A stretch of 63,843 nucleotides of DNA, the filler included, from Collodictyon triciliatum (taxonomy: Eukaryota): assembly GCA_043381765.1 (NCBI GenBank). It is 14 parts of 14 records of this genome, joined end to end, with 100 filler letters (N's around TTAATTAATTAA, not from the genome) between each part and the next. Parts side by side here need not be neighbours in the genome. Positions count along the whole stretch, not along the records: positions 56,208 to 60,430 come from JBHJMP010006361.1; 13 more parts are not named here. The stretch is one strand, 5' to 3'. Position 1 is the stretch's first letter; every line of letters begins with the position of its first letter. The position numbers were made by a program, and so were the translations under genes. The notes beneath the pieces were generated by a model that searched no databases, was not told the DNA's origin, and saw nothing but the letters and a program-made list of their open reading frames with translations. Below are positions 767 to 60,711 of the stretch, one piece after another.

Positions 767-3700
767 ATGTCGCAAAACAGCCTGCCATGGCTCGGACTTG
801 GACAACCGCATGTGGTTTACATGACACAGCAAATGCCACAACCACAAACTCAGCCACAACCACAAACTCAGCCACAAACCCATACCCCATCGTTCCCTTC
901 GCTCTCACTGGCCACCATGTCCTGGGTGCATACCCCTATGCCGTCCGTCTCGAGTGTGCCACCTGCTTTTCTGGCTCAATCTGCGCCGATGCATTCTCCA
1001 GCCACAACCACAGCCACAACCACAGCCACAACCGCTCTCTTGCCACAGACTCTGCCACAATCTCAACCACAAAGACACCCACAACCACATCGAATATCGG
1101 CTGTTTCTGTGTCTGCATCATCGTCTTCATCGCCGCCGTTGTTGGTCAAATCAAAGACAGCACATAACCAGGTCCTTTTTTCTGTGGTGTATTCTTTATT
1201 TTATTTTTAATATGTTTTTTTTTTAACTTTTTAATTTTTGACATTTGTTGTGATGAAAGTTGATTGGCTCAAAACGGGCATGTTTCATGTTTTCTCCTCT
1301 CTTGATTACCTTGTTGGTATCCTTTCTTCCCGCTTCTTTGTTTCCTTCATGATAAGATAGTAATGATCAAGGAATCATTTTTTCTCTTTGTGCATATATA
1401 TCTTACCCATCGATATGTAATATATTCATCCATCCTTCATTGTTTTTGATAAATTTTTGATAAATTTTTATTTCTTTACTTTACTTCACTTTACTTTTTT
1501 TTATGTCTTGTATTCTTTGACAAATCACTCACGCCAGTAAATCCTATCCTCTGCAGGCGTGGATCTCGCCATTTCTAACGTCCCAGATGTATGCAATATA
1601 TTCTTTAAAATCAATCACTTAAATTCCCTTTTCTTCATGATGAGTTAAACAAGAGCTTGAAATTAGGGTAAAGATGACAGCTGATTTAGAACTGAAATGG
1701 CCGATTCATCTAAAATCAAACCACTTATCATTTCGTTGCCCCCTGCCACACCCTTTTCAGATAATCTCAGCTTTTGTGAGCTATTTGATTTAAAATAGCC
1801 AAGATCTATTCCTCTTCTTCGTTTTAACACTATTCACGCATGATAATCATTTGCAAATCTTATCACACAAATACAGACACCCAGAATCGCCCCATTCTCA
1901 ATCTGAGTCTTCTCTTCATTCTCTAAAAACTACTTTGCATTTGGGACATAGTGCATCGCGATTGAATATATCGAAGGAAATCCAGCGATTCAATTGAAAA
2001 GCTTCATCGAGGCCAATATGTTCGACAGATACTTTGTTTATGAAATGGGTATTATATCACTTGGCTATTTTTACAACGATTGGTTCATAACCTTATACTA
2101 TCTCCTCCTTTTACTCGAGGTTGACAACCTTAGATATTTGGGTAAATACGTTTTCAATACCCAGTGTCAATCAAAATAGGGGTCATATGAAAATTTTAAT
2201 TATTATACCACAAATAACAAAACTTATACATATAACCGACATTTGTAGACGTTCCCCGTGCAAAGTCTTCTGAACCTGATGCAAAGATTGTCCGCGTTGT
2301 AAAAGATCGCCTTTTGCCTCCTCGGAAGATGTTTGGAATTAGTCAACCGATCAGATGTGTTCTGGCTTTAAATGTCATAGTAAGCAACTTAAATCGTGAT
2401 TACCTCAAGACACAATTTTCTCAAAAGTAGAGATGATGAACATATTATACATTAGCTCTCTAGATTTAAAGGCAATTATTTCTAACAGATGGTAATATCC
2501 TCTCTGTTCTAGTTTTTTTTTTTTTTGTGCTATGCGATTTGTAAAGGAAATATTTAAAATACACCCAGGACCAAAATACCAGCGAGACGGGATGGTCGTT
2601 CCTCGACACACCAACCTTTGTTGTAGTTACCCACATAGACGATGCTGTACAAGGACTCTTCGGAATAGGCTCTGTTGTACATGGCTATACAGATGAGGTT
2701 TTCATCTTTTTATTGAAACAAACATACCGTTACTGAAGAACAAAACACTTCGAATTGAAATAGTTTACATGAAAATTGATACCAAACAACAACACATGTA
2801 GCGTTCGCTGATAGACTTTGCACTTGTGAACATGGTTCTTGGCTCAAAATCTAGTCTAAGTGATAGCCTTATTACTCCGAGGGACATTCCATTTCTTTCT
2901 TGTGTATCATCTCAGATACTAGGCACAGGTATGTGTCTCAGTAGTCTAACTTTAGCACTAATAGGGTGTGTATCCAGTGACTGCGACAATTTACTCCTTT
3001 ACCAAGATTTACTAACTAATTTTGGCTCTATATGAATCACAATAGGTTCAGTCACATTATCACAAATAGTCGCTTCCAAGCAGTTCAGTTTGCTAAGTCG
3101 ATTAAGTGCATGGTTTGGCAAACTATTTGTCATCATACGAGAGCATGTTATCTTCGATATGTGGAGAAGCAAAAGGTATTTCGTATCGAACAAATACATT
3201 CTTTTCTTCTTCTTTAAACTCGTACACATTGTCCCAATATATCCATCAACAAACAAATAGAGAAATTAAACATATGTAACTTTATTCCATTAGTTGGATT
3301 TATTGCTAAAATAAAATATACAATCCCAATATATGCTCAAAGAATCCAAGGGTTCATGCTTGCCGAGGAAGCAGAGAGCATCTTGACGTCGTGTCCGGTG
3401 GGGTCTTTTCTGCTTCGATTTAGCGAGGATATGAACTACCCAGGTCATCTCGTCCTATCGTACAGAGAAAATGACAAAGATTCGAGAGTCTGTCATGAAG
3501 TTATCAAGATAACGCGACACTCAGAGAGTAAGCCAAAGGGAGGGAAGGAAACACCCGGGCGCATATCCTTTTCTTATATAAGTCCGTCACTCCTGGAGAC
3601 TGGGTATTTATTTTGTCCTCGTTATTGTCTTTTTTTTTTTAAAAAAATAAAATAAAATAAAATAAACTCTACTTCAAGAGGCGACCTATTCGAAAGGCAC

Positions 3701-4058: not shown

Positions 4059-4343
4059 TTTGAAAATACATTTTTGGTATATTATGGTCAATTGAAAGAG
4101 AAAATAGTTTCTAAAGAATCCCAGATTAAGATGATGGCATGAAATATGTGTATGTATGTATGTATGTATGTATGTATGTATGTATGTATGTATGTATGTA
4201 TGTATGTATGTATGTATGTATGTATGTATGTATGTATGTATGTNNNNNNNNNNNNNNNNNNNNNNNNNNNNNNNNNNNNNNNNNNNNTTAATTAATTAAN
4301 NNNNNNNNNNNNNNNNNNNNNNNNNNNNNNNNNNNNNNNNNNN

Positions 4344-8398: not shown

Positions 8399-9053
8399 GT
8401 ATGAAACATTTTGCAAACCACTTGGCTATGCCACTCCAATTACGAAAATTTATGCTTTCTCCTTTTTCCCTTTTTCCCTTTTTCCCTTTTTCCCTTTTTC
8501 CCTTTTTCCCTTTTTCCCTTTTTCCCTTTTTCCCTTTTTCCCTTTTTCCCTTTTTCCCTTTTTCCCTTTTTCCCNNNNNNNNNNNNNNNNNNNNNNNNNN
8601 NNNNNNNNNNNNNNNNNNTTAATTAATTAANNNNNNNNNNNNNNNNNNNNNNNNNNNNNNNNNNNNNNNNNNNNTCTATGTTCTATGTTCTATGTTCTAT
8701 GTTCTATGTTCTATGTTCTATGTTCTATGTTCTATGTTCTATGTTCTATGTTCTATGTTCTATGTTCTATGTTCTATGTTCTATGTTCTTTGTTTTTTGT
8801 TCTTTGTTTTTTGTTCTTTGTTTTTTGTTCTTTGTTTTTTGTTCTTTGTTTTTTGTTTTTTGTTCTATGTGATTTGTGATTTGTGATTTGTGATTTGTGA
8901 TTTGTGACTATCTTATTTTTTTTCTTGTTCATGAGGCAATATGTTTAATTATTCGACTGGTATAGCTATACCGTTCCCCTCTGACCCACGAGAAGAAACT
9001 CGATAATCCCACTCATTGCTAGAACTTACACTTTTATATTTGCACACGGTTAG

Positions 9054-10565
9054 ATCGAGTACAAGGGCGATGTAGATTTGGTTACCGAAACTGACAAGTA
9101 TCCATTTTCTCTCGTTTTTTACTTTATTTTTTGTGAAGTTTTACTATCCTAAAAACGAATGAGTGTATTTACAAGTGAACTAAGTACGATAATGTGTTCC
9201 CCTTGGAAAATATACTTTCGTCCCCAAGAAATTCAAGGAGCTCACAGTTTCTTGTTGGAGAAGAGTTATAATTAGGCGATAGGGTTCACCCTTGACTACC
9301 TTTGATATTTTCTCTCTCTAAGATATGCCATTTAGAACCGAATAAAGCGGGGGAAACTCATAAATATGTAAAACGCTCCTATTTTAGGAAGTGCGAGGAT
9401 GCTATTCACGAAATTATCTTTTCAAAGTATCCAACCCATTCGTAAGTTTCATAAGCATCACTCGTATTTTCTCTTACATATTTGATGGCAGCTTTCCTTG
9501 TCTTGATATTCTCTTACTGATATATACTTATGTTTTAGTGTAAATTTTCATGTCTCTTTCCTGCTTTCATATAACATAATTTTTCATATTTCCGCTCATC
9601 GATTGCAAAGTTGCTCCCTATTGAATAGTAAATATTGAGAATAAGTACTAAATAATTGGCAGTTTTATTGGCGAGGAAACGACACCTCTAGAATCCCACG
9701 TAAATGGGCTTTTGACTGATGCGGCAACCTGGATTGTTGACCCTGTGTGTTGTTCTTTCTTGTTTGCTTGTTTTGTTTGTTTTGTTTGTTTTGTTTTGTT
9801 TTGTTTTGTTTTGTTTTGTTTTGTTTTGTTTTGTTTTGTTTTGTTTTGTTTTGTTTTGTTTTGTTTTGTTTTTCCTTTATTCGATTCAAAGGAAGGAAGG
9901 GGGTTTAGATTATTCAAGAGTTTAAGTTCAATATTTTCCCATTTTTTGATATTCGTCTTAATTACTTCTCGTCACCATAGGTTGATGGGACTACAAATTT
10001 CAGTCATTCTTATCCTTTTGTTGCTGTTTCGATTGCATTGGCCATAAATAAGGAGGTGAACATTCTTCTTTTTTTTATAAAATAAGTGCAACTTTTATAT
10101 CTCCTTTATCATCCTTTTGACACTTGCGCACGTCCTACAAAAGACATGCATTCCTTAAGAGAAAAAATGTGTCAATTATCGGGTTTATCATACACCTGAC
10201 CTGGTCACTAAGTATAAATATTAATTGGTTAGATAGTTATTGGTGTCGTGTACAACCCAATCATGGAGGAATTGTTCACTGCAATCAAGGGACGCGGTGC
10301 ATTTTTGAATGGGAAGCAGATATTCTCTAGCAAAACCTCGGAGCCCATCAAATCACTCGCCGCAACAGGCTTTCCCTATGACCGTAAAACCCGAATGCCT
10401 TTGGTTATGAGTCATTTGGAGGCTGTGCTGTTGAATGCCCAGTATGACTCAGTTTTAATCGCATATCTATTCCATTCGTCAAATACCTCTCGTTCTCTCT
10501 TATTTAAATCGATAATTTTCATCTTCTCTTTACTCATGGTGAAGCAACGCCTAAACTACCATTAC

Positions 10566-19270: not shown

Positions 19271-21274
19271 CTTTTACAATAAAAAGGTAGGTGACTAATA
19301 TGTTTCCCATCGGACTTACAAGAATAAATATAAAAGTGAACTTGATTAACATGCATCATATTTAAGATATACAAATACGAAACTGTATTTTTTTCTTCCT
19401 TATTTGATTGAATAGGGGATTTCCCACAATTATTATTTAAACCCTACTGTTCCAATAAATTATCTCCAGAACGTATGCGTGGTGGTTGACCACTTAGTCT
19501 ACAAATAGAGAGCGATTAAGTAGCCAGTTGGGGTCGAGAGAGAAAAAAAATGCGAAAAAAATGAAGAGAGCAGCGCTAGGGGAGGCTCTCTGAAATACTT
19601 GGAAGAGTGGAAGCATGGAAACGGTCCAAAAAAAAAAAGTTAGAGGTGTCAAAAAAAAGTGTGAAGAGTAGCGTACATCTTTGGAGGGGGTTTCGAAGGG
19701 ATCGACGATTCCAGATTTAAGAGAGGAAAGTAAGAAGAAAAAAAACCAAAGAAACAAAACAGAAAAACAGAAGCGAAGAAAAGGAGACACGAAAACGGGA
19801 CAAACTTGTTGGTGCTCCCATGGGCTTCGTGGTAAGACATCTCCTTATCCCTTCTCCCTAAAGCAAGACTATTACAACCCAACCCCACAGCAGGTTCCTA
19901 AAATGCGTCACGTTTCGGTGCTCTTAACTAGATTCCCTGGTTTCCACAAAGTATCTTCGCTAAGTGTTCCACGAGACCTCGCCGAATATCCCACTATAAG
20001 CGCAGCACGATCCATGCCGGCCGTTGCGGTGGAAGATATGGCATCACTGAGCGGCTAAAACTGATTTAGATTCTGTGGATTATAAACACAGCCACCGACT
20101 GCATTATCTACAACCCACGCATCTTTTTTTTTTGTCCTTCCACGCCACAAAATACTCTCTTCCTCCACTATGAAGGTTATTTTCATCACCGAACTTGCCA
20201 TTCGTCATATTTCTCAAGGAAAGTAATCTACGGGAATGATGAAAAAGATTTCAAATACTTCGATAACAACATCGGAAAGATTATACAGAAAACATCATGC
20301 AAGTATGCTTGCTAGTGGAGAGTGAAATATGCTCACATAATATAAAGAAATACTAACATATGTGAGATGCTTCTTACGAATTTTAGAGCCACCTAAGCAA
20401 GGGGGCTGTGCGTATTAGATGGGAAAAAAAAAATGAAATCAAGATTCAGAGTCTTTCTGAATGGACGAGAGGACGACGCATACGCCCCTCATCCACATTT
20501 GTCCTTACACATATGTGGAATTCCAATTATCAGGAAGGTTGGAGGCATTACTTCCGCTTCGAGGCGACAATGACCATTCAAACATTCAAAAAATTAAACA
20601 ATCGTTGGCGTGGTCACACCCAAGACAAATCCCCATTTATGTACATATTCCGGTTCCATTCAGTGTGAACTATGTCATTTGGATAAATGTTCCAGATATT
20701 CCCTGCTTGGAATGAGGCGAGAAAAAAAGGGAAAAAAAGGGAGCCGCATAAAGGCATCAAGCTATATCCAATCAGTGGGTGGTCGGATGTCAACTGCAGA
20801 GGTACAAATAATCAGAACCAAGCGAACAAGCAGCACGCACGAGCAGCAAAAGGAGAGAGCAAAATGAAGCGCCTTCCAAGCGCCCGGAGAGCGATTCAAT
20901 GCGCGTGAGGCGTATGGCACAAAATGATAGTCAACTCGGCGTCCAAACAGACCCAAGCCATGGTGCAAAGTCTTGTCCGCCAGACGAAGCAATTGGAGTC
21001 ATTGGCAAAACCCAGAAGCCGTCGAATTGCCAGCCAAACATAGCCTTGCCACCGACTAAGGATCCTCTTCGCTCCCGATTGATATCAGCCTCCTTCGCTG
21101 ACTCACAAAGTTCAGACAAACAATGGCCTGAAGCCGTTTTCGAAAACGAGTAGTATTTCGGAGTGACACACACAAAGGAGAGGATGGTATCTCAGTAACT
21201 AACAACAAGTAAAACAAATAGACACCGGCTCCTCGAACGCACAAAAAAAGCAGGAAAGGAAGCAAGAAGAGCGG

Positions 21275-21569
21275 ATGGCCATGGACGTAGCAACCCTGCA
21301 ACGCCGGGGCATGTGGCTCAGTGTGATCGGAGTTGCGCTCGTCGTCTTGGGCGTCGGTATCTCGCAAGGCATCCGCATGAAGTTGCAGGACGGCGTGGAA
21401 AAGGCTGTGGTTGTGGACTCTGTGGACTCGGCCGGGTACGACTCGTGGCTGCGTACAAACGACGGGACTGACCCTTTCTACAGCTACAACATCTACGTCT
21501 TCAACATCACAAACATCGACAAGGTGGTTGCAGATGGCGATCAGCCGATTGTCCAGCAGATTGGTCCGT
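21275..21569 (+). CDS. CD36/LIMP-II/croquemort-family scavenger receptor, N-terminal part
   Basis: N-terminal TM helix, then DSVDSAGYDSW...YNIYVFNITNIDKVVADGDQPIVQQIGP (CD36 signature FN.TN...G..P...GPY). Cut by spacer. Confidence 0.88.
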
Positions 21570-24087: not shown

Positions 24088-25697
24088 ATGACAGCACTCT
24101 TCAATAACCGTGTCAAGGCTGCATGTCAACACCGACTTTGGGGTTTCTATTCCACATCACCTTTAGCCTCTAGCGACAAGCCGGCACAACTGAATTACTT
24201 ATTCAAACCGGCTGCCACGAGATTGGTTACAAAACCACCATTGCTCGTCTTGCACGGGTTATTTGGAAATGCGACGAACTGGTACCTCGTCTAATCTGAA
24301 AATAAAATTACAATATATTCTGACCTTAGAAGATAAATCCAAGGATATAAAAATATTTTTTGTTTTGTTTTTAGAGCCATCAGAAAATGATGACGAGTAC
24401 TGTCTTGTTATCAAATCAGCATAAACAATCTCTAAATAATAGGCGAACCATTTCATCTAAATTTGCAGAGGAGGGTTCAAGCGTGTACTCTGTGGATTTA
24501 AGAAATCACGGTACCAGCGAGCACAGAGATGAGATGAACTATGTAGGTATGGCGAACGATATTTTACACTTCTTGCAAGAGAGACAACTCGATTCAATTG
24601 ACATCTTGGCTCATAGCATGGGTAAATGTCTCGATTCAAATTCTTATATGCATCCCCTTACAATATCATCTGAAGATATAAAAAAATATTTCCAAAACTT
24701 TTTCCAATTAATTCATATTAAAGCTATTTTAATGTTATCATTTTCATTCTTATGGTTAATGTTGATGTTATTTATATTTGTTTATCCTTTTTTTTTTCTA
24801 CTCACAAAGATGCTCATCAATGCAACAATAAATTGATTCGCCTTTCCTTTGCATCATAGGAGGAAAAGTGGCAATGGCATTTACCTTGCTCAACCCTCAC
24901 ATGGTTCGCAAGCTATGTGTTGTGGATATTGCACCTGTTCTTTATGGAAGCTCAGAGACCTCGACAACAAGATCAACTATGATGAAGGTTCTGAAAGCCA
25001 TCGATTCATTCTCAACATCGGGGTTGAAGTCTCGTAAAGATGCTGATTCGAGGATGCAGCAATATATTCCCGTAATTGAAATTTTGATTCATTCATTACA
25101 TTCTCCAAATAAAAAATCATATATTTCCATAAAAAATTCCACTATTCTCTATTTAACGAGTAGGTTCTCAATTCGATATTCTTTCCCAATAATGATTCAT
25201 CCAACTCATCATAATTAGTTACAATTTTCTAGTCTGAGGGACTAGTTAATCAGTTTTATCATTTTTGAATTTCACCACACGCGACCTGGTTGGAGTTGAA
25301 TGCGATATTAACAACAAATACATCGCTTTTCAATCAGGAATTAGGACTACGACAGTTTATTCTTCAAAATCTAGTTCGTAATGAGGAGCTTGGGTTTGAT
25401 GAATGGAAATGGCGCATGAACACGTCTGCCATTCGCAACAACATGGCTAATCTGACGGATTTTGCCGTTCCGATGCCCCCAGGACAGCCCTTTTCAGGCT
25501 CAACGCTCTTTATGAAGGGAGAGAAGTCAAATTATATTCGAGATGAGCATATCCCGACCATCACAGGATTTTTTCCAAGCGCTCGTGTTCAAGTGATACC
25601 CGGAGCAGGCCATTGGATTCACGCTGAACAGCCTGCTCTGTTCATTGAACATGCTACAGAGTTCTTTAACACTTTAACGAAATTTACTGTTCGTTAA
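24088..25697 (+). CDS. ABHD11: ABHD11/YbfF-like alpha/beta hydrolase, paralogue 2
   Basis: Exons 24088-24281, 24443-24621, 24860-25071, 25338-25697. Motifs LHGLFGNATNW, DLRNHG, AHSMGGKVAM, DIAP, AGHWIHAEQP. Confidence 0.93.
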
Positions 25698-30770: not shown

Positions 30771-33700
30771 ATGCAGCACACTTTTCAAACAAACCCTAAG
30801 CAGATACCCGGGAGGGTTGTGTCAACTGCAAATCCTTCAAAGCCACCTGTTTTTGGTTCAATGCCTATGCCCACTACATTCAATCAAGCGTCGACATCTC
30901 CATTCCCTGTTCACAAAGTGGCAGAACCGATCACACGCCAGCAAAATCACACCTCCACAGCACAACCACTCCCATACACTAACTGGATGAACCCTGCAGA
31001 GCAATTTACTGCAAACTTCAATGAGCAACGTTTTCAGTAAGAAGCAATAAATGCATAGAACTTAACAAGCATCCTAATACTTTTTCTTTTTACAAAATAA
31101 AATACCTTTGCTCTCTGTAAATGTAGATTCATAAACTTAATGCTTTTCTCATCTAGTTTAGTGGGCTCAACATATATACTCTTATCTTTCTAATGCTATT
31201 TTTACATCATGAAGCTAGTATGTGTTTGCTCTTTACTTTTTTCGTTTATTCCATTCTGTGTACTAATATCCATACCTTATTTATGATTCTCAACATATAA
31301 AATATCATTTAGAGGAAATCCTACATCTCCAACGCCCCAGGTGATTCCAAATCGAACAGTTCAAACACAACCAAAAACACCAGCACACCACGCATCAGAG
31401 GTGCAAAATCAAGATGAGATTTACCCTCAGCCACAAGTACAACATAAACCAAGGTCACAATCGCAAGGACAGACCCAAGTCATATACACACAACCTGTTC
31501 CACCTACAATAAAACCCGATACATTCTTATCTCAGGGCAGTGGATTTGACTCAAATGGATTTCCTGTCCTGAGGCATCGAAAGGATTCAAACCCCCGCGA
31601 TGAAAAAGTCGGGCTCATTACTCCTGAATCATCAAGAGACAATCATGAATCTAATTATGTCAGCCAACTCCAGGTATATAATTTTAAATCATATCCTATT
31701 AATTAAACGATACCTCAAAATTCGAACCATTTATGAAAACAATACAAAAACAAAAAAAAGCAAACAAAAAATTCTTGCTTATTTAATTTACGTCCAGCGA
31801 ACAATTTCAGTGATTCAAGACTTCCCAGAGGATGCTTTGTATCCCCCAAACGGGAAAATAATAAAGAACTATAAGCTCATTAAGACCCTTGGGACTGGTG
31901 GATTCGCTCTTGTTAAAAAGGCCATCGATATCGAAACAAAAAAATATGTTGCCATCAAGATATTTTCAAAAAAAGGAGAAGCGTTCAACTCCCGATTAAT
32001 CTCGTATATTCTCATTCTTCACATCTAATTTACTTTCATACTTTTCATAAAACTATGTTTTTTTGGGCTCAAAATATGAAAATATATCGATATTTTCCTC
32101 ATAGGAATGAAGTTATGGTCATGAAGAAAATATCTCATCCAAACATTATTTCTTTCATCTGCGCATTGGAGGATACAAATTATATATACATCGTCATGGA
32201 GTATGCAGACGGGGGCGACCTTTTGCGCCTCGCTATGAAAATGGGGCGTGTTCCAGACGATATGTCCAGACAAATATTTTCTCAACTGGTATCAGGTAAA
32301 TCAAATGTCATCGGCATGTATTAACAAACAAACAAACAAACAAACAAACAAACAAACAAACAAACAAACAAACAAACAAACAAACAAACAAACAAACAAA
32401 CAAACAAACAAACAAACAAACAAACCTCCACAAGGAAATCATATACATAAATGTAATGTGAGTAAAACTCAACAGATGCTCTGTCCTAGAAATCATAAGA
32501 AAATTATCCTATCATAAAATAAAAATCATTCCTTGGTCTCCAAGAGTCCCTAACTTAGGCTTTCATCCATCCCTTACAAATACAATAGCACTTTCTTACC
32601 TCAAGAAGCTTAAAATCACTCATCGGGATTTGAAGCTGGAGAATATTCTCTTGTCTAGTACGCCACACTTAACCGTGAAGTTAAGTGATTTTGGAATGGT
32701 AGGGATTAGTGACCCAAGCATAATGCTTAGGACTATATGCGGGACACCTGTATATAATCCGCCGGAAGTATTGGACCAAAAACCATATCTCGGACCACCA
32801 GTAGATATTTGGTCATTGGGTGTTATATTATACTCTATGTTATGCGGCAACTTCCCTTTTGACGACTTAGAAAATATTCAGCTTCTGTATAGAAAAATTA
32901 AACAGGGAATATATCCTGCTCCAACGTGTGACCGCCTCGCAAAAGACCTGATTTCAAAAATGTTAGTGGTTAATCCATCTAGTAGATTGACCGTTGAACA
33001 AGTGGAGGTACATCCTTGGATGCAAGTCGGAGAAAAGACTTCAATCACAAGAGAAGTTGTCTTGCAAAAGATTAGAGATTCATACAATTCTCCATTTTAT
33101 CAGAAGCCATCTCTTTACAAGCCCATTCCAACTCCTTTACTTAACAAACGTCCAAAAGACGCATCTTTACGCAAGGAGGCACAAACACAGCCCAAGTCAA
33201 ATAGAATAGGAAACAAATCTGGGATGGATAAAGGAAAAAATACCACTCCCCTCCCACCTGAGGCCAAAAGAGTCGGAGATAGTACCCAAACCCCTTCAGC
33301 AGATTTAGTACCCACCAGAACTGATGAATTCCTATCTCCTTCGCCAATACCCAAAGCCTCACAATCAACAGCTATCTTATTAGTAAGTCAGTCCGTTACT
33401 TCTCCCAGGTTTATTCCCCAGCAAGGTCCATATCAGGAACAGCAATTATATCAGGGACAAAACCGAAAATTGCAAGACGAAGTAGCAGAACAAATACAAG
33501 ATAATCAAGAGTTCAAAATAATTCAACCGCAAACGCAAATTCAAACACAAACACAAACACAAACGCAAACGCAAGCACAAACGCAAGCACAAACGCAAGC
33601 ACAAGCACAAGCACAAGCACAAGCACAAACGCAAGCACAAACGCGAGCACAAACGCAAGCACAAGCACAAGCACAAGCACAAGCACAAGCACAAGCACAA

Positions 33701-34554
33701 GCACAAGCACAAGCACAAGCACAAGCACAAGCACAAGCACAAGCAAAAAACCATATTCCTAACGTCGCAGCCAATCCATTAGACGGAGTCATTGCACATG
33801 ATAGCAATCGATATTGGGTATGGTCTTCGCAACAAGTCAGTTTTGAAGAGGATGAGATTTTCTCTGAAAGCAGCGAAGAAGAAAGGGAATCGGAAGCACA
33901 CAACCAAGATCCTCAAGTCGATGCAGTTCCATTTTGCTCGGACGATTCAGACCAAATAATAACTATCCAGGAAACGAGAATCATCACATCAGAATCTATA
34001 ATCACAGATGCTCCTACTCATGTTCCTTTGGTTAGCCCGCCCCTTCGCGTAATCGACCACACAACACCAAAATTTGAATGGAAGCTCCTTAAGCCTGTGG
34101 ATGATGTATTCTATTCATCTTTTCGAATTATAGTGTAAGCACACTGGTTTTAGTTTAAAATAAATAAATAAAATTTCTTTTTTCTTCTCATTAGCTTCCA
34201 GGGAGAGACAAAACTTCTCGATCAAACTCAAGCGAAGGAACGTCCACCGTGTCAAATAGTTCATCTGCAGATATTTCGCCCTCGACCACGCGCACAGGAA
34301 GAACGATAAGCAATGATTATTTACCACAAAATTTCTTTCGGGAAGGGTCTCACTCTAGTCCAAGTTCGATACATATATCTAGTGGAACTACTTCACTCAT
34401 TTATGTATGCTTTATTCCAATATTTTTTTTATGCATTTATGTCGACAAAAAATGATTTACATATATTGACATGTGTTTTCCAAAACTAATTACTGTTATT
34501 ATAATATCCCATAACATATAAATCTAGGAATCAAATCTTGGGAAAGAGTTTGGC
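30771..34554 (+). CDS. SNF1/AMPK/MARK-related (CAMKL) Ser/Thr kinase with (AQ)n tract, 3' truncated
   Basis: [66 protein letters not shown]. Introns splice in phase. Confidence 0.93.
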
Positions 34555-38099: not shown

Positions 38100-38881
38100 T
38101 TTTTTATTTGATTTTGATTTTGATTTTATTTTTGATTTTGATTTTGATTTTGATTTTGATTTTGATTTTGATTTTGATTTTGATTCTGATTTTGATTTTG
38201 ATTTTGATTTTGATTTTGATTTTGATTTTGATTTTGATTTTTGTTTTGATTTTGATTTTGATTTTGATTTTGATTTTGATTTTGATTTTGATTTTGATTT
38301 TGATTTTGACTTTGATTTTGATTTTGATTTTGATTTTGATTTTGATTTTGATTTTGACTTTGACTTTGATTTTGATTTTGATTGTCATTTTAATTGTCAT
38401 TTTAATTGTCATTTTAATTGTCATTTTAATTGTCATTTTAATTGTCATTTTAATTGTCATCTTCATTTTTTCCTTTTTTTCGATTCAAAGTGAAGCGAGG
38501 TTATGCCATACAAAGGGGCGGGATGGGAGCGCATGGGAGAGAGCAAACGCGAGAGGGAACACAATACCGTGGAGAGGGTAGAACCGGAAAGAAATCAGTG
38601 ATAGTGAGTTGGTCAGGTGGGCTTCCTAAATGGTTGATTGGTTGCGTGTGTAGCGAGGGTTGGATATGCTGTGGGTGATATCGCACGACACATTCCCACA
38701 TCTCTCTTCGCTTGTGGTCAGAGTAGCGAAGAATGCGAGCGTGTTTCAGCAGACTGTTCAGGAAGCTGTATTGCACGAGGCTCTCAAGCCTGGATACATT
38801 GATTTCTCGTTCGGGTGAATCATTGGAGCGAGAGAATGCGCGCACACTCCATAAGGCCCACAGCATATGTCCCCTTGTGAC
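38100..38881 (-). mobile_element. 3' end of a non-LTR retrotransposon (ORF C-terminus, 3' hairpin, microsatellite tail), cut by contig end
   Basis: Intronless minus-strand frame open from the contig edge to 38501: HMLWALWSVR (like the W..W..R motif late in L1/Tx1 ORF2)...DQLTITDFFPV...*. Then CACTTTGAATCGAAAAAAAGGAAAAAATGAAG, (ATGACAATTAAA)n and (ATCAAA)n. Homologous to the TSD-flanked insertion at 57937-58144. Confidence 0.75.
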
Positions 38882-39398
38882 NNNNNNNNNNNNNNNNNNN
38901 NNNNNNNNNNNNNNNNNNNNNNNNNTTAATTAATTAANNNNNNNNNNNNNNNNNNNNNNNNNNNNNNNNNNNNNNNNNNNNTCTTTTGTTTTCTTTTGTT
39001 TTCTTTTGTTTTCTTTTGTTTTCTTTTGTTTTCTTTTGTTTTCTTTTGTTTTCTTTTGTTTTCTTTTGTTTTCTTTTGTTATTATCGTTGGTTAAGATAA
39101 AGGGGTAAATAGTCTCGTGACAAGGTGGAATAAAGGGGGGAAAAAGAGAGAAATAGATAGCTTTGAGAAGGAGCAAGGACGTGTGAAACAGAAGGCAAAC
39201 TGGTGAATCCATGCCGCGTGCGAAAAGGGTGGGTCTTGTCGCAGTTTGAAAGAAATGATCGGCCGCAGCAGCAGATGCCTGTCTTTGTTTGTTTGTTGTT
39301 TATTAGTCAGCGTCTTTGTTTGTTGGGAGGATTTGTTGAAGGAGTGGGTGTTTCGGAGTCGTGTTTGCATCAAACGGCCCCTTACTTTTCATCTGTGC

Positions 39399-56207: not shown

Positions 56208-56487
56208 AACACAAGTCAGGATATATTTTGCGTCTTCTGACTCCAGGCCGTCGACATCAATTGTGTCTATTTGAATGTACCCTGGTTTGAATCGCATCAT
56301 GGTTGCTTGTTTGCGTTCTGACTTTCTCGCTTGGAGAGTTTGGTAGTCGGGTTGTTGTTTGAGAAATTCCTCGACAGTCTTTTTTTTTAATTCCAAATTC
56401 TTTTACGAGCGCCCAGAGTCCGGCAACTGAATTGGTGTGCTTGGGTGCATTGTGATACTTGTTCAATATATCCATTTCGTCATCCAT
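56208..56487 (-). mobile_element. N-terminal part of a Polinton/Maverick- or mavirus-type retroviral-like (rve) integrase, frameshifted, cut by contig end
   Basis: Joining two frames across the T9 run (56380-56388) gives MDDEMDILNKYHNAPKHTNSVAGLWALVKEFGIKKKTVEEFLKQQPDYQTLQARK...GYIQIDTIDVDGLESEDAKYILTCV. This fits the c-integrase pattern V..(W/F)L..Q..Y...Q.D..D....KYILT.ID. No introns. Confidence 0.8.
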
Positions 56488-56496
56488 ATATTGAAT

Positions 56497-56590
56497 TAGA
56501 TATAATAATAAGTAAAAAACGCAGAAAACAATTGAGGATGAAATAATCTGATATTTATTTATTCTATATATCTAGAATAAATAAATATCA
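56497..56590 (-). promoter_or_regulatory. TCTA motif in AT-rich context at -13..-10 of the integrase ATG, and perfect 18-bp inverted repeat
   Basis: Minus strand: tattattataTCTAattcaatatATG. Hairpin arms TGATATTTATTTATTCTA (56549-56566) and TAGAATAAATAAATATCA (56573-56590) with a 6-nt loop. Confidence 0.55.
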
Positions 56591-57039
56591 ATCAGAGACA
56601 TTGCAAAGACATTATTCAACAAACTCGCGAACTTTTTTAGCTTGAGATATCGACAATCTTTTCACTCTTTTGGCAGAACTTGTTTTGCGTCTTTTTTTTA
56701 CGCACCGGCTTTCTGATACCATGTAAAGTAATATTGACAAATATGAATAATAGACATCAAATAGACCCACATTCATCTATATATGAAATCCACAATAGGG
56801 AATGCACCTTGGTCATTCCCCGATTCACCTCTATAAATGCATTTTACCTTTCCTTCTTGTCATTTTTATTATTGCACTCTCATCGCACCAGAATCCGCCT
56901 GCAGCAAGGACGCAACACAACAGAAAAACCAAAACAAAAAAACAAAAAAACAAGAAACAAAAAATGGAATGAAAAACCGTAGAAATTGTTGTAATACAAA
57001 ATCCACGCTAAAAACTCGACACAACAGAGAAGGCAGCGG

Positions 57040-57834
57040 ATGGCGCAGTTTATCAAACTCCAAAGCTCTGACATTACACCAGGTCCTCTTGTATTCGGCA
57101 CAGAAGATTACCGTATTATCCAAGCTCGAGATAAAAGAACAGGACAGACGGTCGCTGTCAAAGAATATCAAAAATCACAGCTCCACAAACCTGAATATGT
57201 CGAGCCCATCATGGAAGAAGTCGGTAAGCTTGTCGCTTTGCCTCGACACAGCGGGGTTTTATCCTACCTTGGTGCTTATGTCGAAGAGGGCACTTTAAAT
57301 ATCGTCCGCGAGTTTGGTGAAGGACGTACCCTCGAGGAAATCATTCCCACGCATAACTTCGACCTTGAAAAGATCAAAGAATTAGTTGAAATGATCTGCG
57401 ACGGCGTTTCATTTTTACACTCTCATGGATTGTTTCATTACAACATCAAGCCCGACAATATAATACTGAAGGCTGATGGAAGTGTCGCTCTTTGTGATTT
57501 TGGGATGCTCGAGCTCCGTGATAGTATTCAACGTAGAGGCACATCTAGAAGACTAGACATTGCGGTAGCTCCGCCAGAATTGTTCCGCGATGGCTCTTAT
57601 GTGGGAGAGAAGAGCGATGTTTTCTCAGTCGGGCTTATTTTATGGATGTTTCTCTTCAAAAAGATTCCCAAAGTCCGCTACTTTGACACGAGAAAAATTA
57701 CCGATCCAAAAATGAAAGAGCTGCTGACCAAGACATTTAACCAAACACCTGAGGAGCGCCCGACACTGGACGAGTTTCGTCGCAGTATATTAACTGATTG
57801 CGTATGTGGCTTTTCTTCACAAGTGATCTCCTAA
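57040..57834 (+). CDS. Protein-kinase-fold pseudokinase (HRD replaced by HYN, no Gly-rich loop)
   Basis: VAVK and DFG are intact, but the catalytic loop is LFHYNIKPDN and GxGxxG is absent. Possible phase-1 donor at 57785. Confidence 0.85.
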   Translation: MAQFIKLQSSDITPGPLVFGTEDYRIIQARDKRTGQTVAVKEYQKSQLHKPEYVEPIMEEVGKLVALPRHSGVLSYLGAYVEEGTLNIVREFGEGRTLEEIIPTHNFDLEKIKELVEMICDGVSFLHSHGLFHYNIKPDNIILKADGSVALCDFGMLELRDSIQRRGTSRRLDIAVAPPELFRDGSYVGEKSDVFSVGLILWMFLFKKIPKVRYFDTRKITDPKMKELLTKTFNQTPEERPTLDEFRRSILTDCVCGFSSQVIS

Positions 57835-57919
57835 TGCATATCTGATACTCATGAGATTTATTCAGAATTAAGTATTCGACCGGAAACGTACCTTTCTACC
57901 TATTAATGTACTATACAAT

Positions 57920-58161
57920 ACAAAGACCGACAAAGCTTTTGGGCCGCCCACCTGACCAACTCGCTATCACTGATTTCTTTCCAGTGCTGGCCTCTCCACG
58001 GTAGTGTCTTCTCTTACCCGCGTTTGCTCTCTACTATGCACACCTACCTCGCTCTTTTATGGCATTAACTCACAGCGCTGAATCGAATAAAGGGAAAAAA
58101 CAAACAAAAGAACAAACAAAAGAACAAACAAAAAACAAACATAAACAAAGATCGACAAAGC
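57920..58161 (+). mobile_element. ~208-bp 5'-truncated non-LTR retrotransposon copy with 17-bp TSD
   Basis: ACAAAGACCGACAAAGC (57920-57936) and ACAAAGATCGACAAAGC (58145-58161) flank it. 57946-58003 matches the reverse complement of 38565-38622 at 53/58 by hand alignment. Ends CTGAATCGAATAAAGGGAAAAAA plus a CAAA-rich tail. Confidence 0.9.
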
Positions 58162-58202
58162 CGAATTAGTGCGAAATGCGAAAGGAGCTGGTTAACCTGT
58201 AG

Positions 58203-59392
58203 AAGCTCGCAAAGCTGAAGAAGTCCGCAAAGCTAGAGCAGCAAGTAAGTGAGAACATTGTCCTCTTCCTTTGCAGTCACTGATACTCCTATAAGGCGGC
58301 CTCTGACATCAAACCAAATCAGCCCCTAGCCGCCTGACCCTGGGCAAGTATGCAGACCTGCTAACCACGGACTTTGAGAGGAGGGAAAACTTCCTGGGCA
58401 AGGGCGGCTTCGGGATGGCGTACAAGGTGCAGCTAAAGGAGGGCGTCTTTGCTATCAAGAAGATCCCTGATGCTATGGTCTCATCATCCCCAAACGGTGC
58501 AGACCCCGAGACCGAGGGCAAGTTGATGCTCGAACTACAGCACCCAAACATCCTGAGACTCTATGACTTTGGGTACCACAACAAGGACCTGCTCTTTGTC
58601 ATGGAGTTTGCGGACGGTAGAGACCTGCACACACTCATCGAAAGGTGCAAAGCGCTAGGAAACGATCTGACCCTCAAATACGGGCTGCACATCATCCATG
58701 GACTTGCCTATCTCCACTCTCGCGTGCCGGCCATCCAGCACCGCGACCTGAAGACAGAGAATGTCCTCCTTGTGGACGGCGTCGCCAAGCTGACTGACTT
58801 CGGGCTTGCAAAGAGTGGTGTCTCTGTCAACTCGGTGAGCAAGTTCGGTGGCTCGATGAAATGGTCCCCACCCGAGGTTTTTGACGGGGGCAAGGGTGTG
58901 GGCCTGCCTAGCGATGTCTACTCGTATGGCCTTGTCCTCTGGTCCATGCTAAGCGGCAAGTATCCGTACGAGGGAATGATTGACAGTCAGGTCAGTTTGA
59001 GGGTCCTTCGTGGGGAAAGGCTTCCTCTCCCTGCTACCTGTCCTTCTAACCTCGCAGCTCTTATCCACAAGTGCTGGGAGGGAGACTATGAAAAAAGAAT
59101 AACCGCGGTTCAAGTCAGGACATATATGGACGAGCTCATGCGCAACCCAAACACCGTGATTGAGAAGACATCAAGGGATTCAGTAAAGGGAATGAGCAAC
59201 GCGCAGCTTGTCAAGTACCTGGAGGATGAGCATGTCATTAAAAAGTTTATTGATATCGTAAAGAGCGCCAATGTGACAGGTGATGACTTCCTTGAGCTTG
59301 ATAAAGACAATTTAAAATCCAGACCATTCAAACTCAACGAATTCGACGCCAAAACGATTATCAAGTTGATTGAAGAAGCCAAGCACAAATAG
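58203..59392 (+). CDS. TKL-group protein kinase with C-terminal SAM domain (5' end unresolved)
   Basis: LGKGGFG, AIK, HRDLKTEN, DFG, GSMKWSPPE, SDVYSYG, CW...R. SAM-like tail MSNAQLVKYL...NVTGDDFLELDKDNLK. Intron 58245-58322 (GTAAGT...CTGAC...CAG) links an upstream exon EARKAEEVRKARAA. Confidence 0.9.
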
Positions 59393-59525
59393 GCAACCTC
59401 TGAATCTTCTGCTATCGGTATTTTCTCTCACCTCTCTCTTTCTGTTGCAGAGAAGCCGACAGACAATAAAACATAAACGATTAAAAACATGCGCTTACGA
59501 CTTCATATGCCTTTTTTTTTATACA

Positions 59526-59573
59526 CACGAAAAGTTTTTTCCCTTTATTCGAATCAAAGGTTATAGGCACGAA
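59526..59573 (-). mobile_element. 36-bp micro-copy of non-LTR 3' end with 6-bp TSD
   Basis: CACGAA at 59526-59531 and 59568-59573 flank minus-strand CCTATAACCTTTGATTCGAATAAAGGGAAAAAACTT. Confidence 0.7.
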
Positions 59574-59985
59574 TATAGTTTTTGGAATTTCTTTTGTGAG
59601 ATGTTATTGCACTTGCACGCAGCTGTTTTTGATTTTATTTCAACTGTTTAATCGAGAAAACAAAGCCGAGGAAACCGCCTTCACTCCAGGACAAGAAATG
59701 AGCTGTGAACAAGACAGTGGAAAGCCCCGGATTGTGTGGTTGGAGTTTTTGTGTTTTGGGTGGAAGGAAGGAAAGAAAAAAATAGAAACGAGGGAAAGTG
59801 TTCTCACGTGCAGACTATTCTACCCGAGGTGAATCAGCTCCAACACGGTTTCTTGCTGTATTCGACACTTGTAAAAGAGCGGATAAAGTTGTCGGGTCGA
59901 TGAAAGTACACATGGCAATCTTTTCTCAAATTGATCCCGACGAGTCCTTTCAACCGTCTATCTCAGACAAGATTTACATCCTATT

Positions 59986-60430: not shown

Positions 60431-60711
60431 NNNNNNNNNNNNNNNNNNNNNNNNNNNNNNNNNNNNNNNNNNNNTTAATTAATTAANNNNNNNNNNNNNN
60501 NNNNNNNNNNNNNNNNNNNNNNNNNNNNNNCTTTTTTCTTTTTTCTTTTTTCTTTTCTCTTTCTCTTTCTCTTTCTCTTTCTCTTTCTCTTTCTCTTTCT
60601 CTTTCTCTTTCTCTTTCTCTTTCTCTTTCTCTTTCTCTTTTTCAACTATAGTCTTATTCCTTTTTTAATTTTTGATATCTCACACTCAATAATCGTGCTA
60701 TAAACATATCA

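Follow-up and report, generated by a model that had tools for sequence, protein, structure and literature searches.

Does Collodictyon triciliatum encode a pseudokinase and an active-looking protein kinase in one polypeptide, and is the assembled copy of the gene intact? The question arises at positions 57040-59392 of a 63,843-nucleotide (nt) stretch of the genome assembly GCA_043381765.1 (the window), where two kinase open reading frames (ORFs), K1 and K2, follow one another on the plus strand. The initial annotation had described a tandem pseudokinase-kinase-SAM gene in one frame, interrupted by a long interspersed nuclear element (LINE) and by a single TAA codon. We consider it rather likely that the locus is a tandem pseudokinase-kinase gene of known design, and that this copy has been disrupted by a retroelement inside an exon and by a nonsense codon. 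The fusion is probably the right description of ancestral or sister copies.

The window consists of 15 contigs of ~4.3 kb in order of falling length, joined by linkers of the form N44-TTAATTAATTAA-N44 (N runs at 4244-4343, 8575-8674 and onward to 60431-60530). Because the contigs are chained in this way, gene neighbourhoods across the linkers are artefacts, and the real neighbourhood of K1 and K2 is the contig at 56208-60430 alone.

RNA evidence came from a sequencing-run search, in which eight freshwater metatranscriptome runs contained part of the window. Four runs were aligned to 56600-59700 at 90% likeness, two from one study (X1 and X2) and one from each of two others (X3 and X4). These data are assembled contigs, which show joins and not the ends or levels of RNAs. 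The alignment masks 58094-58151 as repeat, and two joints and one loose end were dropped at masked repeats. The intervals 56600-57015 and 59408-59700 had no RNA cover and were counted as evidence of nothing.

Gene model of the K1-K2 locus

The features of the locus, each with the evidence on which it was placed, are as follows.

57040-57801 (+): exon 1, pseudokinase K1, 254 codons from the first ATG; Pkinase match, motifs, structural model and RNA contigs
57802-57925 (+): intron 1, 124 nt, GTATGT...AG, phase 0; one X1 contig
57920-57936 (+): left target-site duplicate, 17 nt; 16 of 17 positions equal to 58145-58161, at an offset of 225
57937-58144 (+): 5'-truncated retroelement copy of the non-LTR (long terminal repeat) type, 208 nt; homology to a longer copy, target-site duplication and A-rich tail
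58145-58161 (+): right target-site duplicate, which re-creates an AG at 58149-58150; match to the left duplicate
58162-58244 (+): remainder of exon 2, a charged linker, with TAA at 58193-58195; three RNA contigs (X1, X2 and X3)
58245-58322 (+): intron 2, 78 nt, GTAAGT...AG, phase 1; joint 58244/58323 in X1, X2 and X3
58323-59392 (+): exon 3, K2 and a helical tail, stop codon TAG at 59390-59392; Pkinase match and RNA contigs

Both ORFs give nearly full-length matches to the Pfam Pkinase profile and so belong to the kinase superfamily (PF00069). K1 (57040-57783, +) matches with an E-value of 1.4e-32 over profile positions 15-255 of 263, and K2 (58325-59389, +), intact across 356 codons, with an E-value of 2e-50 over positions 4-257 of 263. 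An in-frame stop lies 15 codons upstream of the first ATG of K1. With the insert and one duplicate removed, exon 1, a 94-nt exon 2 (57926-57936 plus 58162-58244) and exon 3 join in one frame of 641 codons, whose sole internal stop is the TAA at 58193-58195. Before the insertion the gene would thus have had three exons and a product of ~641 amino acids (aa), comprising the K1 pseudokinase, a charged linker of ~45 aa, K2 as a tyrosine kinase-like (TKL-like) kinase and, at the C terminus, a small helical domain. Both breaks would fall inside the 94-nt linker exon: the retroelement, 11 bases past the acceptor and carrying an in-frame TGA, and then the TAA. The linker also contains an 18-nt in-frame tandem repeat (58205-58240); one X1 contig departs from the window at 58234, which would fit an extra repeat unit.

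The initial annotation was correct that K2 has no in-frame ATG ahead of its glycine loop. The first one, at 58415, stands directly behind the loop motif GKGGFG; exon 2, read in the same frame, offers no ATG either. An X1 contig retains the insert, and in that form the frame of K1 runs into TGA 57953-57955. Since the insert supplies this stop and K2 lacks a start codon of its own, the only product translatable from the present copy is the pseudokinase, 254 aa followed by a short tail.

The insert has the anatomy of a non-LTR retroelement of the LINE/SINE (short interspersed nuclear element) type, with a target-site duplication (a 17-base direct repeat), an A-rich tail that follows AATAAA at 58086-58091 in its 3' end, and 5' truncation relative to longer copies. 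The interval 57938-58100 shares 79% identity over 167 alignment columns with the opposite strand of a different contig (38630-38466), where the element extends further 5'. Homology to the longer copy begins right behind the left duplicate, and an X2 contig of a longer copy departs from the window at 57939. The longer copy at 38466-38925 (-) is cut by the contig end; its open frame spans 126 aa or more. The window contains no full-length copy. No reverse-transcriptase or other Pfam match was found in the 126 aa of this frame that were scanned, so the name LINE in the initial annotation rests on anatomy. That annotation was right that an A-tailed retroelement copy lies between the two kinases. 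It had placed the copy in an intron; with its start 11 bases past the acceptor that RNA supports, the insert falls in exon 2. The left duplicate contains both that acceptor (AG at 57924-57925) and the first 11 bases of the exon (57926-57936).

All the sites on which the earlier gene model drew are present (GT at 57785, AG at 58159-58160, TAA at 58193-58195, GT at 58245 and AG at 58321-58322), and both of its joined readings translate as described. The RNA contigs separate its junctions. The joint 58244/58323 (GT..AG, 78 nt) occurs in X1, X2 and X3, three of the four runs, which come from two studies; X4 lacks cover at this point. The contigs that carry the joint are colinear from 58152 to 58244. 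They begin at 58152 because of the repeat mask, and have 52, 52 and 29 unplaced letters upstream of that point. The two other proposed junctions, 57784/58161 and 57784/58203, were reported in none of the four runs, and their sites are read through.

The first intron supported by RNA is instead 57802-57925, seen in one contig. X1 record 2 joins 57751-57799 to 57926-58039 with no other differences. The joint was printed as a skip of 126 with GC..AG borders and AC between the two blocks, and the genome bases at 57800-57801 are GC. The simpler reading is a single mismatch at 57800 followed by a clean GT..AG intron (57802-57925, joint 57801/57926), and we dropped the GC..AG intron in its favour. 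This contig crosses 57785 up to 57799-57801 and continues into the insert. No X1 depth is left inside 57848-57925 once the listed records are accounted for. RNA contigs also cover exon 1 (57026-57719, 90-99% identity) and, at 0 mismatches, three parts of exon 3 (58726-58876, 58921-59080 and 59162-59347).

At the TAA site the codon is AAA in X2 and AAC in X1 and X3, a sense codon in all three covering runs. Position 58193 changes from T to A in all three and 58195 from A to C in two; T at 58193 occurs in no contig. An altered genetic code, in which TAA would be read as an amino acid, was rejected: neither kinase ORF contains an in-frame TAA or TAG, and the related copies have AAA or AAC at the site, not CAA or CAG. 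Related expressed copies with the sense codon would probably make the full fusion.

The contigs may also hold traces of a link from K1 to exon 2. X1 record 2 contains exactly 51 exon 1 letters, and a length of 52 unplaced letters would correspond to position 58151 plus these 51. The two dropped joints and one loose end match in number the three contigs that abut 58152. In X2, depth is 4.11 in the bin 57744-57847 and zero in the preceding bin, which corresponds to 46 letters at a depth of 9.28, the depth of X2 record 12, the contig that joins exon 2 to exon 3. The X2 depth could also come from an unspliced contig that is not listed, and for X1 the depth in bin 57744-57847 has two numerical solutions. 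We take these figures as a hint of a K1-exon 2 joint in sister copies.

Copy differences extend beyond the linker. The listed differences between the window and the RNA contigs are mostly non-synonymous: X1 has at least 9 such codons among 11 changed ones, X2 at least 18 among 26 and X3 at least 3 among 4. Contigs of all four runs depart from the window at 59080 and continue with related kinase-end sequence, the departure following 0-mismatch stretches of 160 bases in X1 and 197 bases in X2. These departures suggest several mosaic copies, possibly mosaic paralogues or the outcome of gene conversion.

The two kinase domains and the helical tail

K1 qualifies as a pseudokinase by the sequence definition, under which at least one of the β3 lysine, the HRD aspartate and the DFG aspartate is lost (PMC13519141, in excerpt): HYN (57436-57444) replaces HRD, and the catalytic aspartate is missing with it. 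K1 has no glycine-rich loop and keeps the β3 lysine and DFG. An AlphaFold model from a four-sequence alignment shows a kinase fold (predicted local distance difference test, pLDDT, 76; predicted template modelling score, pTM, 0.78), with best Foldseek TM (template modelling) scores of 0.76-0.78. The last helix of the model reaches to residue 252, and no structure is predicted for read-through residues 255-264 (pLDDT <50).

A HMMER search of K1 against 1.84 billion representative proteins gave three close relatives among the best 150 matches, at 36-41% identity; the other rows are at or below 33%. All three are single-domain proteins, with lengths of 253, 255 and 291 aa. One is P0122; the other two, P0123 and P0125, are Diphylleia rotans transcript ORFs from EukProt, and their ends lie at most three residues from the K1 exon 1 boundary. 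At the HRD site the relatives have NYS, NYN and HHD, so one keeps the aspartate; the glycine-rich loop is absent from all four proteins, K1 included. In alignment K1 is 32-39% identical to these relatives and 25% to K2 (31% locally). Because K1 is nearer to the free-standing proteins than to K2, it is not a recent duplicate of K2. Multi-kinase proteins among the best 150 K1 matches (23-33% identity) were ranked by summed score and are uninformative for family. K1 searched against longer proteins gave no match at 1e-15, a rather strict threshold.

K2, judged by its motifs, appears to be an active kinase: GxGxxG (GKGGFG, 58397-58414), the β3 lysine (FAIK), HRD and the catalytic asparagine (HRDLKTEN, 58739-58762) and DFG (TDFG) are all present. 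Its nearest natural kinases of solved structure are MLK1, ZAK, MLK4, Roco4 and TAK1 (MLK1 and ZAK at E-values of 5e-34 to 6e-33), and by this measure K2 would be TKL-like. The top solved match, 9p9u_A, was set aside, as it holds two EGFR kinase copies in one chain and its score is doubled. A protein search with K2 among proteins of near length returned no close relative (best identity 30-37%). P0001 and P0002, which head the K2 rows, were likewise rejected as generic proteins with two kinases, placed high by summed score. The first 120 aa of exon 3 gave nothing at 1e-10 in a protein search. In metagenome contigs, none of 49 pattern matches to K2 was confirmed, and an exact 24-base exon 3 pattern had 0 matches.

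Behind K2, the C-terminal tail (59141-59389, ~75-84 aa) forms six to seven helices in a single-sequence model (pLDDT 67). The initial annotation had called it a SAM domain, a label that we keep as a lead. The tail has no significant match in Pfam, where the best row is SAM_KIDINS220 at an E-value of 0.13, and nothing in Foldseek at E <= 0.001. In VIA the best Z is 5.2, with CARD/PYD (death-fold) rows at Z 3-4.6, within the noise for helical bundles. In the ESM Atlas the nearest clusters are SAM clusters (0.90; 20 of the 30 matches of that set). A SAM domain is a fair guess from these comparisons.

Alternative readings of the locus

Several observations weigh against a single tandem gene broken in this copy. 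The G+C content at third codon positions (GC3) differs strongly between the two kinases, at 0.45 in K1 and 0.68 in the kinase part of K2 (0.54 in the tail), so that codon usage would shift abruptly, and for no evident reason, inside a single putative gene. K1 and K2 occur together in no contig shown, and the link between them consists of two separate joints and an inferred excision. The agreement of frame would arise by chance in one case of three, and exon 2 is short. The sense-codon contigs come from other copies or strains, since their likeness to the window in exon 2 is no more than 91-95% (5-8 of 93 positions differ). The exonic insert is transcribed, in X1 record 2. Lastly, all three close K1 relatives among the best 150 matches are single-domain, so a related lineage has a free-standing pseudokinase of the K1 type, and a fusion, were it real, would be lineage-specific.

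These single-domain relatives, the GC3 difference and the lack of a contig shown with both kinases would all be expected of two separate neighbouring genes, a free-standing K1 and a K2 whose first exon and ATG lie elsewhere or have been lost. In that case the last exon of K1 would have stopped at TAA 58193 before the insertion and would stop at TGA 57953 now. We regard this as unlikely. K2 lacks an in-frame ATG before its glycine loop, in exon 2 as well as in exon 3, and the splice target of K1, with the insert removed, is the same 94-nt exon that is spliced to K2. Since K1 and K2 share that exon, there is no room between them for a terminator and a promoter. The site of the TAA, at which a free-standing K1 would have ended, is moreover a sense codon in every covering run.

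About as improbable, in our estimate, is that this copy still works as a fusion, with intron 1 extended to 57802-58150 through the re-created AG at 58149-58150 and with the TAA an assembly error or a rare allele. The duplicated AG is present, and a splice from 57802 to 58151 stays in frame with one residue changed. The absence of T at 58193 from the RNA contigs, the intact 356-codon K2 ORF with its 0-mismatch contigs and the two dropped joints are compatible with such a splice. The sole contig at the junction, however, uses the upstream AG and continues into the insert (X1 record 2). No motif resembling a branch point was seen in the A-rich tail before 58150, which would also speak against the extended intron, and the exon 2 contigs, with their 5-8 differences, are not from this copy.

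A wider evolutionary reading, which we hold at a similarly low level of belief, is a fast-changing family of pseudokinase-TKL-kinase fusions in which fused and split states exist side by side. The exonic insertion would then be in the course of absorption into the intron, or the gene would be un-fusing toward a free pseudokinase like that of Diphylleia. Because the differences between copies are mostly non-synonymous, this reading includes a role as decoy or sensor, as in plant tandem kinases.

The phase-1 intron of the initial annotation, from 57785 to 58160 or, in a stop-skipping isoform, to 58202, is very improbable: both versions are in frame arithmetically and would set ELVRN about as far from the end of its kinase as ELMRN is in K2, but one contig crosses 57785 and three cross 58160 and 58202, and under the RNA-supported splice those two distances are no longer equal. 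What survives of that annotation is its core, one frame interrupted by a retroelement and by one TAA; the evidence for it is now the RNA-supported introns and the removal of the insert, in place of the junctions from 57784 that it had proposed.

Known systems, neighbouring sequences and significance

A tandem gene of this design has a close parallel in Pyk3 of Dictyostelium discoideum, in which a pseudokinase N-terminal to a TKL kinase represses that kinase and has been likened to the JH2-JH1 pair of JAKs (PMC4196871, in excerpt). Both are protist proteins with the pseudokinase ahead of a TKL kinase. The likeness is one of design: Pyk3 is much longer (its pseudokinase lysine is K754), whereas K1 starts from residue 1, and the C-terminal helical domain has no counterpart described for Pyk3 in the excerpt of PMC4196871. 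By analogy with Pyk3 and the JAKs, the N-terminal pseudokinase would restrain the C-terminal kinase in cis.

The Janus kinases (JAKs) of metazoans carry FERM and SH2-like domains ahead of JH2-JH1. The fusion considered here has neither, as Pfam finds kinase families only and K1 starts at the first ATG, and the nearest solved kinases to K2 are TKL kinases (MLK, ZAK and TAK1), so it falls outside the JAK family. The shared feature is a pseudokinase followed by a kinase in one chain, for which inhibition in cis has been proposed in JAKs (PMC4196871 and PMC6170490, both in excerpt).

Plant tandem kinases such as WTK1/Yr15 and RPG1 are kinase-pseudokinase pairs with no further domain, derived from the RLK/RLCK families by fusion or duplication (PMC6170490, in excerpt). 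Like them, the K1-K2 protein would have two kinase-fold domains of which one is degenerate, and its mostly non-synonymous copy differences are as expected of a fast-evolving family. Judged against the same excerpt it is not a plant tandem kinase: the order is pseudokinase-kinase, the reverse of WTK1, there is an extra C-terminal domain, and the nearest K1 relatives are protist ORFs.

Single parts of the protein also have counterparts. The Diphylleia rotans proteins P0123 and P0125, and P0122, match K1 over nearly its full length and share the lost glycine loop, the altered HRD and conserved C-lobe motifs; unlike K1 here, none of the three has a K2-like part attached. ZAK carries a SAM domain behind its kinase. 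ZAK/MLTK (MAP3K20) and MLK1 (MAP3K9) are the best natural solved matches to K2. A literature search on kinases of Diphylleia-like protists found no paper, which is no proof that none exists.

The insert resembles Introners, in which the target-site duplication of a transposon provides a splice site, in that the duplicated target includes the AG of a 3' splice site and the insert could in principle join the intron. Introners are mostly DNA transposons that create new introns, according to PMC9860276 (in excerpt). The present insert is of retroelement type and stands next to an intron that was already there, and its new AG goes unused in the sole contig at the junction.

On the same contig as K1 and K2, and divergent from them, lies one further ORF fragment.

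56208-56487 (-): divergent ORF fragment, possibly the N terminus of a mobile-element integrase; translation, with no family match

The divergent orientation and the shared contig agree with the initial annotation, which had called this ORF a virus-like integrase; the label itself is a lead. The ORF has no match in Pfam or PHROGs. It ends at the contig end, before any DDE core, and has a frameshift at a T9 run (56382-56390). In the ESM Atlas it scores 0.93 to unnamed eukaryotic clusters and 0.82-0.83 to rve and Integrase_H2C2 clusters. An integrase N terminus is possible and unproven. The AT-rich spacer between this fragment and K1 contains a 42-nt inverted repeat (95%) at 56549-56590.

Other contigs of the window hold further coding sequence. 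An ORF at 3218-3655 (+) has an SH2 domain (Pfam E-value 1.3e-6); taken with the TKL kinases, it is a hint of phosphotyrosine signalling in C. triciliatum. At 31573-34138 (+) lies another, unrelated kinase gene of several exons, which has a long Q/T/A repeat tail and whose last exon matches Pkinase at 1e-38. Fragments of exons were also found for a CD36-family protein (21203-21568, +), an inositol monophosphatase (10233-10500, +) and an alpha/beta hydrolase (24375-25697, +).

The K1-K2 locus changes no general principle, as the design is already known from Pyk3 and JAKs. For annotation it means that gene finders would call two genes or a wrong intron here, and that an exonic retroelement with a duplicated acceptor is easily taken for an intron. 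Should the fusion prove real in intact copies, C. triciliatum would extend the placing of a pseudokinase before a TKL kinase to a second lineage of protists, one that lies outside Amoebozoa. How the gene relates to the free-standing Diphylleia pseudokinases would then offer a datable case of both fusion and un-fusion.

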